Source: an uncultured Planctomycetota bacterium (GTDB taxonomy: Bacteria > Planctomycetota > Phycisphaerae > Tepidisphaerales > Tepidisphaeraceae). Taken from it: a stretch of DNA of 64,000 nucleotides. Made by a program: the position numbers. Positions 21,001-27,000 of the stretch are shown in pieces (positions within the stretch are counted from its first letter, which is position 1; each line of letters starts with the position of its first letter). The DNA lies in contig CAWJEN010000003.1 in the NCBI GenBank assembly GCA_963841915.1, positions 64,001 through 128,000 on the forward strand, written 5' to 3'.

Positions 21001-24000
21001 TCACCATGCTGCCGGTGATGACGTTGCTGGCGATGGCGGCCATGCCTGTCGTGGAGCCGAGCAGGGCGACCAGGCCGAAGCCGTCGTTCCCGACGACGCC
21101 CATGAGCAGGGGCACGTGAATGATGCCGAGGGCAAAGGTGCCGAGCAGCCGTGCGTAGTTGGTAACAAGCCGCCAGACGGTGGTCGAGCCCCGCCGGTTC
21201 TTGACGACGGCGTCTGCCGAACCGCCCACCGACTCATACGGCACGGTGGTGGCGGCGGAAACTCGGTCGTCGTTCATGAACTTGTTGACGGCAAGCGGAC
21301 CCCCTGCAGCACATACATCGGCAACAGTCCCGGGCCAGCGTAGCCCGGGACTGCAGTCTTGCCAGTTGATGAACCTGCCACAAACGTCGTTAGCCGACGT
21401 TGATCGGCGGCGACAGGCCCTCGATCAGCACGTTGTGGGTGCCGGTGGTGAAGAGCGAGCCGCGGAAGTTGCCATTGGTGTCGCGGAACGTCACGCTCGT
21501 GGCCGGGGTGTTGGCCCGCAGGAAGTTGGGTCGACGGCTGGAGGTAATGGGGTCGAAGTAGAGGTTCTGGAACGTCAGGCCGTACACGCCGCCGTCCTTG
21601 CCGGTGGCACTTGTGACAATCTCACCTGCCCGGGCAGCGTTGCCGGTGGCAAGGCCGTTGTTCTCGAACCAGGCGTCGCGGAAGGTGACCTGGCGACTAC
21701 CGGCCAGGCTGATCGTGCCCTCGCTGGTCTTGTTGGCCTCAAAGACGCAGCCGTCGAACGTGAGCTGGCGGGCGGTGCGGATTTCCAGGGCCCAGTCACC
21801 CGAAGCGGCAGTGAACGTGCATCGCTCGAAGCGGGTCGCCGTCGATTCGCCGTTCCAGACGACGTGCGTCTTGTTGTTCTGGAAGGTGACGTCGCGGAAG
21901 GTGTTTCCGACGCCGCTGGCTTCCATGGCAATATCGAGGTGACGGAAACGAACGTTCTCGAGCGTCGACCAGTGCATCCCCGAGCCGGTCGTGCCGAGGC
22001 CGACGAACCCGCCCTCGATGGAGAGGTCACGGAGCGTCAAGCCGACGTGGTCGGTGAACTGCTTGGCGACGCGGACGATGGCAGCGTTACCGAACTCGGC
22101 AGCCCAGGCGGCGCGGTCGCCGATGGTGAGCGCTGTCGAGTTGCCGTCACCGGTGATGGTAATAGCTGACGTGATGTCGAGCGGGCGATCCAGGTCGTAC
22201 ACGCCGGCCGAGAGGTGCAGGCCGACGCCCTGTGCCTGTGCCTGTGCGAGAGCCGCATGCACGTCCTGGCCGGGCTGAACGACGATGGCGTTCAGCGGTG
22301 CCTGCGTGTCAGGTTGCTGCGGGTTACCGACATCCGGCGTCGGCTGGTCAATGTCGTTGCTGTCCTTCTGGTTGACGATCACCGGCTCGACGGCATCAGG
22401 GCCCGTGGTGACCGGGACATTGAGCTCGCGCTGCTTGATCAGCTCGCGAAGTTGTTCGCTGAGGCCGCTGTCACCACTTGCGGCGGCGGTGGCACGGTTG
22501 AGAACCTGGTTGAGCGTCTCGGCCTGGAGCGTGAGAATCTCGCTCGACTCGAAGCCTTCCTTCTCCATCATCTCCACGAGGTCGAGCGAGCCGCTGGCAG
22601 ACATGAGGCGGCGAACGTCGAGGCCCTCGAGAAGTCGGTTGACACCAGCCCGGCCATTGGACCGGCGGCAGCGTGGGCACAGGCAAGCTTCATCCTTGGA
22701 GCTTTGACCGAGCTCTTGGGCGGCGGTGTTGTTTGACTTCTCAAGCATGGTCTAAGTTCTCCATTGTGACACGGGAAGATGCAAAGCCTGAATCACGTAT
22801 TCCGGCTGGCGCGGCCGCTGCAGCCGCTCAGAGGCATACGCCACCCGCGGCCGATAAGCTCACGGTGCTAGACGTTTCCTGTTCAGGCGGCGGGGCGAGA
22901 CCCGACATGCACTCTATGAAGCTTCGACTCTCGGCCACAGTTGCGTTGATTTTCGTGTTGCTCGCCGGTGGTTGCTCCAGCTCGCAGCCCGATCGCTCGC
23001 AGCCCAAGCCGATGCCCAAAGCAGCCATTACGGCCGAGGGCCACTACGCGGCTGGTCAATTTCACGAGTCGGCGATCGTCACCGATCAGAGTGGTCGGGC
23101 GACGGCTAAGCAGCTTCGCGAGGCCCGTCGCAGCGCGATCAAGCAGTACGAAGCCGCGCTGAAGCTCGACGAGACGCACGCCGGCAGCCTGTACCGCCTG
23201 GCTGTCCTGGCGACCGAGGACCAGGATCTTGACCGGGCGGCTGGGTTTTGGCGTCGGTATGTGAAGGCAACCGATGGCTCAGCCGTCGCGTGGCGCAACC
23301 TGGCCGTCGCCCACGACGTGCTCGGTGAGGCCGAGACGGCCGAGGAGGCGTACCGACACGCATTGGCCGCTGACGCCGACGACGACATCAGCCGCGTGAA
23401 CCTTGGGATGTTGCTCGCCCGGGCGGGGCGGCTGACCGAGGCACGCGAGCAACTGTCCAAGGTGCTGGCCCCGGCTGCCGTCCACTTTCACGTCGCTCAG
23501 GCGTTGCAGCGTCGCGGTCAACACGCCGCCGCGGCCACCGAACTTCGTGCGGCTGCCGCAATCGACAGCCGCTACGCAACAGCGTCGCTCAGCGTCATGC
23601 CGATCGACTAATTCAAGTCGTGACACAATCAAAGAAGCCGAGACACGACGCGTCGCGGCTTCTTCTGCATCTCTAACGGTGTCACTCGCGATCGAAGAGT
23701 GACACGCCGATCGGGCCAAAGAAGCCGACGGCCGCCGCTTCGTTCTGTGACTTCGTCACGGTGTAGACGTTGCCGCGGGTGAAGCTCATGACCTGCGGCG
23801 AAACGTGACCATCGAGCCACGCGACATTGGCGCGGCCGTCGTGGCGAAAGTGCGTCGAAGGATCGACACCGGCCGCCGGTGGCTCGACGAAGCCGTACTC
23901 GATGAGACGACCCGGCCGCAGAAATGCGGTGTCGGCGAGCAGCACCGTCTCGCTTGACGAGCGAAACTGCGAGAGCCTGGCCCCCAGCATCGATGTCAGC

Positions 24001-27000
24001 TTCGACGGCACGTCTCGGCCGACGTAGGTGGCGTTGTAGCCGTATCCGCCGGTGCCGCTCTCGAAGGCTGCCGCTTGTCCCGACTCGTATTCCACCGCCT
24101 CGTGATCGAAGGACGGGCAGCGGTTGACCTCGCCCGTCTCCAGATAGTCGAAGATCGGGCCGCGTTCGCTGACGAAGGCGGCATCGTCGTCCTCCCGCTC
24201 GCCGTGCCAACGACGCAGGTTCGAATCATTCGGCAGCGATGCGTCCCAAAACCGGGCGGCTCCGGGTGGCATCCGACCTTTGTGGTCGCCGGCGTAGTGG
24301 AACATGACCGTCGCGAGCTGACGCAGATTCGAGCTGCACGTGACCGCCTCCGCCGAGCGTCGAGCGGCCCCGAGCGTCGGCAGCATCACGCTGACCAGCA
24401 GCGCGATGATGCCGATCACGACGAGCAATTCCACAAGCGTAAAACCGCGCCTCATCGCCGCCTCCGCGCGAGCAGGCCACCGAGCACGAGCAGGCCGAGC
24501 GTTGACGGCTCGGGGACGACGTTAATGACGCCAACACCTGCGCCGACGCCGAGCTGGAAGTCGAAGCCGCCGGTCCCTTCGGTGAGCCAGGCGTCGAGGA
24601 TCGGGTTTCCGAGCGAGTCGAGGAAGCTGCCGTTGCCTGGGATGTCGACGAGGCGGACGAAGTTGATGCTGGCGAGATCGACATCGCCGCTGGCGACGAG
24701 CGGGTCGGCGGCAAGGTCAGCGAGATCGAACGGTGTCCCGAAGCCCGCCGCGTGCTTGCCGGCAAGGCCCTTGATGTTGGTCGCGTCGAACCCGCCGAAG
24801 CTCTGGCCGAAATCGCCTGCGAAGGTGGTGTTCGTCGAGACGCTCGGGAAGCGGGCAAAGTTGCTGCCGTCGGTACTGACTTCGACGTAAGCGAGCTCTG
24901 CCAGGAGGAACGGGTCGCTGGGGAAGACAAAGCCGTTTTCGAAGACGGCAAAGTCATCGCCAACGCCGTTGGTGATCGCTGCTGGGAAAGCAACGGTCAA
25001 CTCGCCAGGCTGGATGCCGTTGGCGATGTCGGCGGCGTCGAGGTCACCGAGGCTGTTGAAGCCGCCGTCTTCGTTGATGGCCGTGCTGCCGCGTGGGGCG
25101 AAGCTTGTGAGGCTGTCGACGATGTCGTCGGCCCAGGCGACGAAGCGGTCGCTGTCGACAGGAACGCCATCGGTCGGTCCGGAGTAGGGGCCGGCCACCG
25201 CTGCTGCAGGAACGGCCATCACGGCCGCGAGAATCAATTTGTAAGTCAAGAAAAGTCGCTCTCTGTCCCGAACGGGGCGGGACGCATCTTCGAGTCAGAT
25301 GGGTCACCGGCGACACAACTCGGGCAGAAGACGGACGACCGGCCGCCAATGGCGGGGCGGAAGCACATCGTCCGCCGGTCGTCCTGTTGCGCGAGGACCC
25401 GACAGGTGCCAACCGTCACGCGTTACCACGTGCGGCATCCGCCCGAACACGTCGGGTGGCAACAGGCAGGTCTTCCGGCTACGGGTTCAACAGCGTCGGC
25501 CTGCCTTCCCGCTGACGCATCAGCAGTGGCTTGGTTGGCCGACGCCTGGCCCGTTACGGCGGCGCGTCCGCGGAGGAATCGGCATCATCGTCAGAGACGG
25601 CTCAACCTCACCTCACTTCCCTCTTCGCCGACGACAATGCGTCGCCGGCACCTGTGACGAAGGCAACGTAGCCTCCCGAGCGGGTGCGTCAACCGCGATG
25701 ATCGGGCGCGCCAGCAGCTTTCGCCCGCAGTTGTAGATACGTGCAAGTATTGGCAGTATATTGCACTTTTTCGACGAATTGGAGAAGCTGTGGCCTTAAC
25801 CGGACGTTGCTGTCGCATGAGCAAGCGTCCAGTCACGCCATCCCGTAGAACCCATGAACCGCCACCACCTGATCGAATCGCTCGAAACCCGTCGCCTGCT
25901 TGCCGCCCTGTCCTGGGACGGCGGCGGTGACGGCACCACCTTTGAAGATCCGCTCAACTGGAGCACGAACGTTGTACCTGGTGCGGCGGACGACGTCACG
26001 GTGGATGTCGCGGCAAATCCGACAATCGTGATTTCCGAGAGCCGCGTGCTGCGTTCGCTCAACAACTCCGAAGTCTTCGAAGTGACCGCGGCGGCGGCTT
26101 CGCGAACGCTCACCATCACGCAAGGCGGTCACAACAGTGGCACCATGGTCCTGACCGGGACTGGTCTGGGTGTCTCGTCTCTAGCCCTTGGCAGTACCTT
26201 TACCAATAGCGGAACAATTCGCTTCGACACCGCCGCCGGCTCGGCAGAGCGGCGGATCACGCTCAATCAGACCAACCCGGTCGCCTTCGTCAACGACGGC
26301 ATCATCAACGTGACGGCGGGAACCGACGCGGTGCTGCTTGGCAACGGAGCGGCCATCGCGACCTTCACGCAGAACGGCAACATCAACGTCGACGCCACAG
26401 GTCAGCTGATCGTCCAGAGCGTCAGCTTCGACTATGTCGGCGGGACCAACTCTGACGGCTTGTTTGTCGCGAGCAGTGTGCTCGACTTGGTCGATGCCGA
26501 CGCAGCCTCGACTTTGTCGGCAGTCGCCAGCAACACGTTGGCCGGCTTCGATTCGCCAGACCTGACGCTCGCAATACGTGGCGATGCAGGCGGTTTCAGC
26601 TCAGCGTCGCTCACCAATAGCGGCGTTGCGATGACGATGAACGGTGACATTGACATCGAGACGGCAGGCACCGCCTCGGCGACACTGACGCTCACCGGCA
26701 ACGTGACGAACCAGGGCACCATTGGCCTGACCGGCACCGGATCAGGCACCGCCACCTTCAACATCGGCGGAACCTTCACCAACGTCGGCACCGTCCGCGT
26801 CGACCAAGGCAGCGGCACGGGCGGTCGAAACGTTCGACTCAACCAGACGAATCCGGTCGCTTTCGTCCATAGCGGAACCCTCGACGTCACTGCCGGGACA
26901 GAGACCGCAATCCAAGGCAGTGGCGCGACGATCTCGACCTTCACGCAGAACGGAACGATTTCCGTCGGCGCAGGCGGTGAGCTCATCGTGCAAAGCGTCA

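Follow-up and report, generated by a model that had tools for sequence, protein, structure and literature searches.

Organisation of the riboswitch operon

The window, a stretch of 64,000 nucleotides from a genome of the Tepidisphaeraceae (Planctomycetota), carries on its minus strand a cobalamin riboswitch followed by two genes. In the direction of transcription the features are:

25448..25670, minus strand: RF00174 cobalamin riboswitch aptamer (covariance model, 92.4 bits, E 1.3e-21)
25250..25447, minus strand: leader and presumed expression platform, between the aptamer and the TTG start
24452..25249, minus strand: g00215, 265 aa from TTG, with a signal peptide, a predicted BtuH-like jelly-roll (about residues 20-244) and a C-terminal PEP-CTERM tail
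23682..24455, minus strand: g00214, a prepilin-type DUF1559 / H-X9-DG protein of 257 aa

The aptamer covers the full RF00174 model (positions 1-189) against a gathering score of 31.5, and a genome-wide search returned this match alone. The first-pass annotation had described it as the only cobalamin riboswitch of the genome, lying directly upstream of a PEP-CTERM gene and then a prepilin-type gene, and both the coordinates and the domains bear this out. The spacing of 228 nt given there between aptamer and g00215 rests on an internal ATG; the TTG at 25249 appears the likelier start because a full signal peptide results, and it gives about 198 nt.

The genes g00215 and g00214 overlap by ATGA and form a two-gene operon headed by the riboswitch. 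Riboswitches of the RF00174 class allow expression when B12 is scarce, and by analogy the operon would be subject to ligand-dependent repression. Just 5' of the TTG start of g00215 lies a short hairpin (25274-25257) followed by a T-rich run, with a purine-rich stretch included; this hairpin is one of two terminator-like sites found, where 2.2 are expected by chance, and the folding z of the leader is -1.25. At a random same-strand position in this genome, a PEP-CTERM or pilin motif occurs within 1.5 kb downstream 2.8% of the time, and both motifs in that order 0.14% of the time.

g00215 belongs to the BtuH family

The PEP-CTERM tail of g00215, which is single-copy in the genome, is recognised by PF07589 (21.0 bits, cut-off 20.7) and TIGR02595 (21.9, cut-off 16). 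The predicted structure (pLDDT 90.4) is a jelly-roll, and its two best fold matches are BtuH2 (7biz_B; Z 12.3, rmsd 3.1, 161 residues aligned) and the BtuH domain of BtuG1 (8blw_B residues 392-660; Z 11.9, rmsd 3.5, 172 aligned), followed by a third at Z 8.0. Identity to the two BtuH structures is 17-20% over the structural alignment. Foldseek gave weaker results, with 8blw at E 2.2e-3 and 7biz at rank 25. In sequence searches of the PDB, g00215 alone or its close-family profile found no match, and the widened superfamily profile (A2) alone gave one, to 8blw_B 392-499 with E 6.3e-7. The match to 8blw chain B, earlier reported as the best PDB hit, falls on the BtuH domain and not on the BtuG propeller. 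Assignment of g00215 as BtuG itself was rejected, since the model is a jelly-roll instead of a beta-propeller and the 8blw alignment is confined to residues 392-660. From profile and modelled fold, g00215 is a member of the BtuH family of B12-binding proteins, and on this homology it would be expected to bind a cobamide.

The accessible text of the published work on BtuH2 lists Asn399, Phe401 and Glu406 among its binding-site residues (PMC8941943, PMC13616437). Through chained alignments these correspond to N105, F107 and E118 of g00215, which are kept in 150/151, 110/151 and 143/151 aligned sequences, respectively. By eye, W221 and D230 could be the equivalents of Trp577 and Glu584. For Gln333 and Asp522 no clear equivalent was seen in g00215, and the mapping assigned no position there to His476, Tyr510 and Trp511. 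A search of g00215 with PF14717 (BtuJ/DUF4465) gave no match, and the ESM Atlas returned no usable named match for it. The homologue count of 3835 reported previously is to be replaced by at least 3575 matches, from a search in which at most 8000 candidates were scored.

g00214 is a dedicated pilin-like protein

PF07963, PF07596 (DUF1559) and TIGR04294 (H-X9-DG) match g00214 above cut-off, and TIGR02532 matches it as well. Its model (pLDDT 85) has a helix at residues 7-57, and the top 23 fold matches are all pilins or pseudopilins, the best reaching a Z of only 5.6. Fold comparison of the pilin head turned up no B12 binder and nothing informative beyond pilins, and an ESM Atlas search with it returned unnamed clusters only. 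A profile built from riboswitch-linked pilins scores g00214 at 121.9 bits and the next pilin of the genome at 28.5, which identifies g00214, at the level of sequence, as a dedicated pilin of the riboswitch-linked clade. A quick tree, from which 18 family rows had been dropped at random beforehand, also places g00214 in this clade.

Elsewhere in this genome, ten other pairs of a PEP-CTERM gene and a pilin gene were seen.

B12 requirement and uptake machinery

The first-pass annotation listed MetH and NrdJ as B12-dependent enzymes of the genome, and profile matches agree. NrdJ scores 551.6 with TIGR02504 (cut-off 399.95). MetH begins at the pterin-binding domain (TIGR02082 positions 320-1182), and a motif search of the genome located no homocysteine-binding part; a TGA flagged as lying inside MetH proved to be the natural stop codon. 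Neither MetE nor CobS (cobalamin synthase) was found in the genome, which is 93.8% complete. Judged by this gene content, the genome needs B12. The reported absence of PF00593 was reproduced while controls matched, and TIGR01779 likewise had no match at this completeness.

Genome searches found two PilT-family ATPases, three PilB/GspE-like ATPases, two PilC/GspF-like proteins and three secretins, none of the pilus assembly, retraction or secretin genes being linked to the g00215-g00214 operon. There are three exosortases (PF09721 matches) and a prepilin-peptidase motif match, which was not confirmed at E 1e-20. Also encoded away from the operon are a BtuF-like binding protein and an ABC transporter resembling BtuCD, for both of which the substrate is presumably a cobamide.

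Conservation of the module in the family

Of 60 Tepidisphaeraceae loci, 50 have the pilin behind the riboswitch; as the genomes are related, this and the other counts given here overstate independence. Among the remaining ten, seven run into a contig end, one has a cobalt transporter and two have BtuB-like receptors. Both genomes with a BtuB-like gene behind the riboswitch are without the pilin. In four loci the pilin follows directly, with no PEP-CTERM gene, and it is the pilin, not the PEP-CTERM protein, that is the constant element of the module. The PEP-CTERM proteins had been said to differ between genomes; they are instead mostly of one superfamily, with 53 of 86 segments converging on one profile. 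BtuJ/DUF4465 (PF14717) was found in partner genes of seven loci. The types of pilin and binder go together (H1 with type I in 8/8 typed loci, H2 with type II in 35/37), and binder-pilin fusions in a single frame occur. Lack of TonB receptors holds as a family pattern only in part: some TonB receptor is present in 26 of 61 genomes, but BtuB-like matches (E <= 1e-30) are rare, in 3/61 (two strong, one weak). CobS was found in only 2/61.

Two other features of relatives were examined: a small partner domain, taken by eye for a transcobalamin C-terminal or DUF4430 domain, was unsupported in PDB and Pfam searches, and propeller-like partners gave no PDB match.

Distribution beyond the family

In a phylum-wide sample, the pilin was found in 18 of 150 genomes with one match each, 15 of them downstream of a riboswitch. 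TonB barrels are missing from 14/18 pilin-positive genomes, with barrels present in the other 4, versus missing from 25/132 of the rest. No pilin stands behind the riboswitch in 15 of 20 TonB-less genomes examined, so other uptake routes exist. Several phylum loci have the pilin under the riboswitch in an operon free of PEP-CTERM genes, and two loci have it in one operon with btuF/C/D-like genes.

When the pilin was chosen by sequence alone in a GTDB scan, 60 loci had 4 kb or more of upstream sequence, and 59 of these, across three phyla, carried a riboswitch there; none of 80 pilin loci contained a TonB receptor. The 80 metagenomic loci of g00215 relatives contained a TonB receptor in 52 cases, a DUF1559 pilin in 7 and both in none; those seven pilins are of a different lineage. 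Pilin and TonB receptor are mutually exclusive at the level of the locus. At genome level the exclusion is a strong trend with exceptions, such as G131, where one operon joins a riboswitch to the pilin and another joins a riboswitch to cob and a TonB receptor. Two phylum genomes (G115, G132) and the GTDB locus L209 have the pilin with no riboswitch detected upstream, and two loci (L283, L314) have a riboswitch with BtuH-like and BtuJ-like genes and neither pilin nor receptor. By eye, L209 looks like a high-GC verrucomicrobium with PEP-CTERM proteins. The operon is present and a TonB barrel absent in the closed genome of Fontivita pretiosa B-254 and in the closed or single-contig genomes G061, G095 and G194.

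Proposed mechanism and alternatives

The earlier proposal of a B12-capture module without BtuB is strengthened by the BtuH homology in fold and profile, BtuJ in seven loci, the dedicated pilin, the exclusion at locus level and the lack of a CobS match. We regard it as somewhat probable that this operon is repressed by B12, serves to acquire cobamides and uses a type IV pilin-like protein where other systems have BtuB, with pilus-assisted passage through a secretin. Scarce B12 would permit expression through the riboswitch. The g00215 product would be exported, anchored at the surface by exosortase processing of its PEP-CTERM tail, and bind cobamide in its BtuH-type pocket. Processed as a prepilin, g00214 would become a cobamide-specific subunit of the general type IV pilus or pseudopilus and, as the most conjectural step, might take up cobamide and carry it into the periplasm by way of a secretin, with PilB/PilT-type ATPases as the motor. 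The BtuF-like protein and BtuCD-like transporter would complete import for MetH and NrdJ. Weighing against this reading are the absence of B12 binders among the fold matches of the pilin head, G131 and the four pilin-positive phylum genomes with barrels, the TonB-less genomes whose riboswitch has no pilin behind it, the pilins of G115, G132 and L209 with no riboswitch detected upstream, the loci L283 and L314, the BtuH2 residues without an equivalent, the lack of linkage between operon and pilus assembly genes, and the incomplete assembly.

Alternatively, both proteins could capture cobamide and enrich it at the surface or in the enlarged periplasm, the pilin-like protein being a membrane-anchored binder and B12 crossing by an unrecognised porin or open secretin. 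The same regulatory and homology evidence speaks for this capture, the TonB-less genomes that do without the pilin (15/20) favour it, and, in the accessible text on Tuwongella immobilis, N_methyl + SBP_bac_10 proteins occur in membrane fractions, often with adjoining signal-peptide genes (PMC8567305). Such capture would not account for two things: pilin and TonB receptor replace each other next to the same accessory binders, and the pilin also occurs beside btuF/C/D-like genes, which already provide a periplasmic binder. We give it about a quarter of our belief.

It is rather improbable that the pilin is an adaptor without B12 contact, which secretes, displays or holds PEP-CTERM binders on a T2SS or type IV pilus. 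The tracking of pilin and binder types, the single-frame fusions, and the 11 of 39 prepilin-motif genes here that directly follow a PEP-CTERM gene would suit such an adaptor; co-variation, however, is equally expected from whole-operon inheritance, and the four family and several phylum operons with a pilin and no PEP-CTERM gene argue against it.

Type IV pilins are often adhesins, and a B12-starved cell could display one toward B12-producing neighbours or particles with no transport involved. The Akkermansia MUL2 locus likely facilitates attachment, according to the available text (PMC13174399), but here the partner genes are related to binders of soluble B12, and pilin and receptor gene replace each other, which makes adhesion a distant prospect. 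Least credible, and already disfavoured, is a conventional BtuB encoded in sequence missing from the assembly, with the operon accessory or coincidental: incomplete assembly and the TonB receptors of some relatives speak for it, against which stand the rarity of BtuB-like genes in the family and the barrel-free closed or single-contig carriers, Fontivita pretiosa included.

Comparison with known systems

In the available text, the btu loci of Bacteroides thetaiotaomicron pair BtuB-BtuG with BtuH, BtuJ and BtuK, together with BtuFCD (PMC8941943, PMC13616437). As far as that text goes, they share with the present loci a cobalamin riboswitch, BtuH surface binders, BtuJ/DUF4465 (here in relatives) and one constant gene amid varying accessory binders. 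Here there is no TonB-dependent receptor, the constant gene is a DUF1559 pilin, and the binders have PEP-CTERM tails in place of lipoprotein signals. With BtuH2 (BT1956, 7BIZ) and the BtuH domain of BtuG1 (BT1490, 8BLW), g00215 shares the predicted fold, the profile match and the equivalents of Asn399, Phe401 and Glu406; it differs in lacking a PKD or propeller domain and in the unmatched Gln333 and Asp522.

In competence pili, the minor pilin ComP selects cargo and retraction brings this cargo through the secretin. The analogy with g00214 is one of working principle: the cargo of ComP is DNA, no ComEA/ComEC link exists here, and the appearance of ComP among the weak fold matches of g00214 (Z 4.3) reflects a common pilin fold and is no evidence of function.

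Genomes of Planctomycetota encode tens to about 100 DUF1559 pilin-like proteins each, which are not known to have an assigned function. The domain architecture of g00214 is that of these DUF1559 (PF07596) / H-X9-DG proteins. A 'fishing rod' hypothesis, in the accessible part of its source, holds that pilin-like proteins pull polysaccharides into the periplasm (PMC12078418). No described ligand for any DUF1559 / H-X9-DG member was found in the papers searched, whereas the clade described here is linked, through a ligand-specific riboswitch, to a small cofactor. In Akkermansia muciniphila, another PVC bacterium, the pilin-like MUL2 locus is tied to substrate acquisition (PMC13174399); it differs in having an archaeal-type pilin with PilM and mucin as substrate, and the available text describes neither DUF1559 nor a riboswitch there. 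Among the open-access main texts searched, nothing links cobalamin riboswitches, BtuH-like PEP-CTERM proteins and DUF1559 pilins.

Implications for uptake in PVC bacteria

If the proposed mechanism is true, a cofactor would be imported across the outer membrane without TonB or a barrel receptor, surveys that count btuB would underestimate B12 uptake in Planctomycetota, Verrucomicrobiota and Hydrogenedentota, and the BtuH family would reach well beyond gut Bacteroidota. To the hypothesis of pilus-mediated uptake in Planctomycetota, the B12 module brings a defined ligand, a regulatory readout of its own and a phenotype in growth, namely dependence on B12 with neither MetE nor CobS. Fontivita pretiosa B-254 adds a cultured carrier, so the hypothesis can be tested with one gene.

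A broader reading, which we hold tentatively and at somewhat less than even chance, is that DUF1559/H-X9-DG pilins serve as exchangeable, ligand-specific receptor subunits in an import channel made of a retractile pilus and a secretin. In many PVC bacteria this channel would stand in for TonB transport, with PEP-CTERM partners as accessory binders and the B12 module as the case whose ligand is named by its riboswitch. Two to three distinct lineages of pilin seem to have been taken into the B12 module. On this reading the ten further PEP-CTERM and pilin pairs of this genome would import other nutrients.

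Riboswitch and Operon

A single cobalamin riboswitch (RF00174) was found in the whole of G000, the Tepidisphaeraceae genome under study (GCA_963841915.1; 3.63 Mb, 93.8% complete), and it heads a PEP-CTERM and pilin operon, as the first-pass annotation had claimed. Window coordinates are as follows.

25448-25670, minus strand: full cobalamin riboswitch (Rfam, 92.4 bits)
24452-25249, minus strand: g00215, with a PEP-CTERM tail, downstream of the riboswitch
23682-24455, minus strand: g00214, with a prepilin motif, DUF1559 and H-X9-DG, downstream of the riboswitch
29858-29931, minus strand: tRNA gene

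An ATGA overlap joins the two protein genes, and TTG at 25249 is the likelier start of g00215 because a complete signal peptide would result from there. With 39 prepilin-motif and 100 PEP-CTERM-motif ORFs in G000, both motifs follow in order within 1.5 kb of only 0.14% of random positions. Eleven of the 39 prepilin-motif genes sit directly behind a PEP-CTERM gene, so this pairing looks like a general module in G000; a ligand is known for none of the ten other pairs. A divergent 1309-aa secreted repeat protein (25854-29783, plus strand) ends in a dockerin-like domain and bears the planctomycete extracellular signal, and a sigma-70-like site (25734-25762, plus strand) points toward it. An exopolysaccharide-type cluster (14909-21277, minus strand; by eye flippase-like, pyruvyl-transferase-like and polymerase-like genes and glycosyltransferases) lies downstream of a beta-helix protein at 21390-22748.

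Relationship of g00215 to BtuH

The predicted model of g00215 (pLDDT 90.4) was compared with 48,161 PDB chains and matched BtuH2 (7biz, Z 12.3) and residues 392-660 of BtuG1 (8blw, Z 11.9), the next best reaching 8.0; Foldseek by itself gave weak matches. The 8blw chain, earlier named the best match, was thus recovered, with BtuH2 ranking ahead of it. The PEP-CTERM proteins behind the switch had been described as differing between genomes, yet a superfamily profile iterated over the proteins behind family riboswitches took in 53 of 86 segments. This profile matched residues 392-499 of 8blw_B (E 6.3e-7), and g00215 was its sole match in G000. The protein is homologous to BtuH, and by sequence and model it would bind cobamide.

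Residues were mapped by chained alignment, with a PKD + BtuH protein from a relative in the phylum as the link. BtuH2 Asn399, Phe401 and Glu406, whose roles are described in passages of PMC8941943 and PMC13616437, correspond to N105, F107 and E118, present in 150, 110 and 143 of 151 aligned sequences; E118 is poorly conserved in other subfamilies (17 of 49 in a wide alignment). Gln333 and Asp522 have no match in g00215, and three other contacts could not be placed by the alignment, so a BtuH-type pocket is putative. A DUF4465/BtuJ gene is added in seven family loci; according to passages of PMC13398666, B12 co-purified with the DUF4465 proteins of Mucisphaera calidilacus, Coraliomargarita and Haloferula. 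The B12 operons also repeatedly contain a small Trp-rich PEP-CTERM domain, as the first gene (L043, L045, L060, L071, L090) or a C-terminal domain (L042, L048); by eye it resembles the transcobalamin C-terminal domain, and Pfam and PDB searches gave no match.

B12 Requirement and Transport Machinery

G000 depends on B12, as its MetH and NrdJ had indicated: both were detected, NrdJ above cut-off, and no MetE was found in the genome. CobS occurs in two of 61 family genomes, G000 not among them. MetH (contig C5:542832-545486, plus strand) has its start at the pterin-binding domain and lacks the N-terminal one; no homocysteine-binding part was found in G000. Matches to the NrdJ frame (C5:625323-630122, minus strand; 1600 aa) are split into several stretches, which points to an inserted element, perhaps an intein. 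The reported lack of a TonB-dependent receptor held: profile search of G000 found no TonB barrel while controls were detected, and there is one weak TonB_C match. BtuF-, BtuC- and BtuD-like genes lie elsewhere, all under family-specific cut-offs, so cobamide is only their presumed substrate. G000 also encodes two PilT-family and three PilB/GspE-like ATPases, two PilC/GspF-like proteins, three secretins and three exosortases.

A Dedicated Pilin in Tepidisphaeraceae

The riboswitch is present in 57 of 61 family genomes. Up to 7 kb was fetched behind 60 of 64 matches outside G000; two of the four omitted head cobalamin salvage-type genes by eye. The arrangement proposed as the family rule was borne out, with the pilin in 50 of 60 loci and a BtuH-like gene in 51; 46 have both, and four have the pilin alone. 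The unpublished genome G002 contributes one locus to the count for the pilin and one to that for BtuH; the conclusions do not rest on it. Of the ten loci without a pilin, seven run into a contig end, one has CbiM and two have a BtuB-like receptor. For two of the cut loci the pilin was found on another contig of the same genome, and no copy was found in the two receptor genomes (85% and 81% complete). Three of 61 family genomes have BtuB-like matches at E <= 1e-30, strong in these two and weak in one; other TonB receptors occur in 26.

A pilin profile, built leaving out the genus of G000 and the shared N-terminal helix, gave g00214 121.9 bits, and the second best of the 39 genome pilins 28.5. 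A quick tree placed 44 riboswitch-linked pilins in two groups, supported at 93 and 100, with all 35 other G000 pilins outside both. The pilin is a constant, dedicated part of the module. Its model (pLDDT 85) matched pilins only (best Z 5.6), which is uninformative on ligand. A MoxR AAA-DUF58-transglutaminase-like (TgpA) cluster, absent in G000, often follows the operon (L032, L038, L047 and many family loci), probably as ancestral synteny.

Distribution Beyond the Family

Among 150 phylum genomes, 18 carried one profile-positive pilin each, downstream of a riboswitch in 15, at a contig end in one and with no switch detected upstream in two. No TonB barrel was found in 14 of the 18 versus 25 of 132 others, which is not an independent test because seven of the 18 belong to one family. 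For 20 of those 25 genomes, a more divergent pilin lay behind the switch in five and was absent in 15. By Pfam, the order is riboswitch-btuF-btuC-btuD-pilin in genome G134 and riboswitch-pilin-btuF-btuC-btuD-cobQ in G117. In a GTDB scan (best 80 of 221 pilin relatives, partly the same family as the Tepidisphaeraceae set), a home-made nucleotide profile, confirmed by Rfam in 11 of 12 loci checked, placed a riboswitch in 59 of 60 loci with at least 4 kb upstream. These 80 loci include records titled Verrucomicrobiota and Hydrogenedentota, and none holds a TonB receptor.

The protein P0240, which belongs to a cluster whose members bear the name Deltaproteobacteria PEP-CTERM proteins, is 44% identical to g00215. 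Among its metagenome relatives (best 80 of 338), a TonB receptor is present in 52 loci (Pfam confirmed all five that were checked), a riboswitch-led DUF1559 pilin in seven (six by motif, one by eye; three near-identical) and both in none; 27 of the 42 loci of at least 6 kb have a riboswitch, and two longer loci have neither partner. Therefore the partner of the same binders is a barrel receptor in some loci and a pilin in others, and the two exclude each other at locus level; the phylum genome G131 has both, in a pilin operon and a separate riboswitch-led receptor operon. The seven pilins score about 6 bits with the first profile and are not recognised by it. Their loci (L293, L299, L301, L303, L304, L328, L330) run riboswitch, canonical DUF1559 pilin, BtuH-like, BtuJ-like, which from sequence may reflect a separate recruitment. 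Possibly, then, three pilin lineages fill the receptor's place.

Proposed Route and Alternatives

B12 would repress the operon through the riboswitch, and g00215 would be anchored at the surface, bind cobamide and hand it to g00214; the cobamide would then pass through a secretin, and the BtuFCD-like transporter would complete import. We lean toward such pilus-assisted import. Cobamide capture without transport by the pilus is a somewhat unlikely alternative. That the pilin is an adaptor is doubtful: single open frames do fuse it with one or more binder domains (L167:3001-6654 and, from G002, L050:4145-6880, both with internal PEP-CTERM motifs, and L178:5-3079), but the riboswitch heads a pilin without a BtuH-like gene in four of 60 family loci. 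A role in adhesion is very improbable. A BtuB missed in G000, whose 93.8% completeness leaves room for one, is hardly credible, since the closed genome of Fontivita pretiosa B-254 has the riboswitch, BtuH-like and BtuJ-like domains and pilin, but no TonB barrel. Clear barrels are present in one of a further four genomes checked.

The module is a variant of riboswitch-controlled B12 capture, its nearest known system being the Bacteroides Btu relay; should the pilin carry out the outer-membrane step, that transport would be of a new kind. No description of the module was found in listings of openly accessible papers or in the papers cited here. Passages of PMC12078418 hypothesize that planctomycete pili draw polysaccharides into the periplasm, those of PMC8567305 describe an expanded N_methyl + SBP_bac_10 family with no function given there, and the part of the BtuJ1 preprint (10.1101/2025.07.01.662609) on Planctomycetota notes DUF4465 only.

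Other Riboswitch-Led Loci

In TonB-less planctomycetes, riboswitches also head unannotated 460-650 aa secreted proteins with weak propeller-like or no Pfam matches and no pilin (L122, L124, L127, L128, L118, L119, L126, L132), candidates for further B12 uptake routes. The single-contig, TonB-less G180, with no pilin of the clades studied, has three riboswitches (L129, L130, L131): one heads a ribonucleotide reductase and the other two each a BtuJ-like PEP-CTERM gene, behind one of which lies a gene that looks MetE-like by eye.
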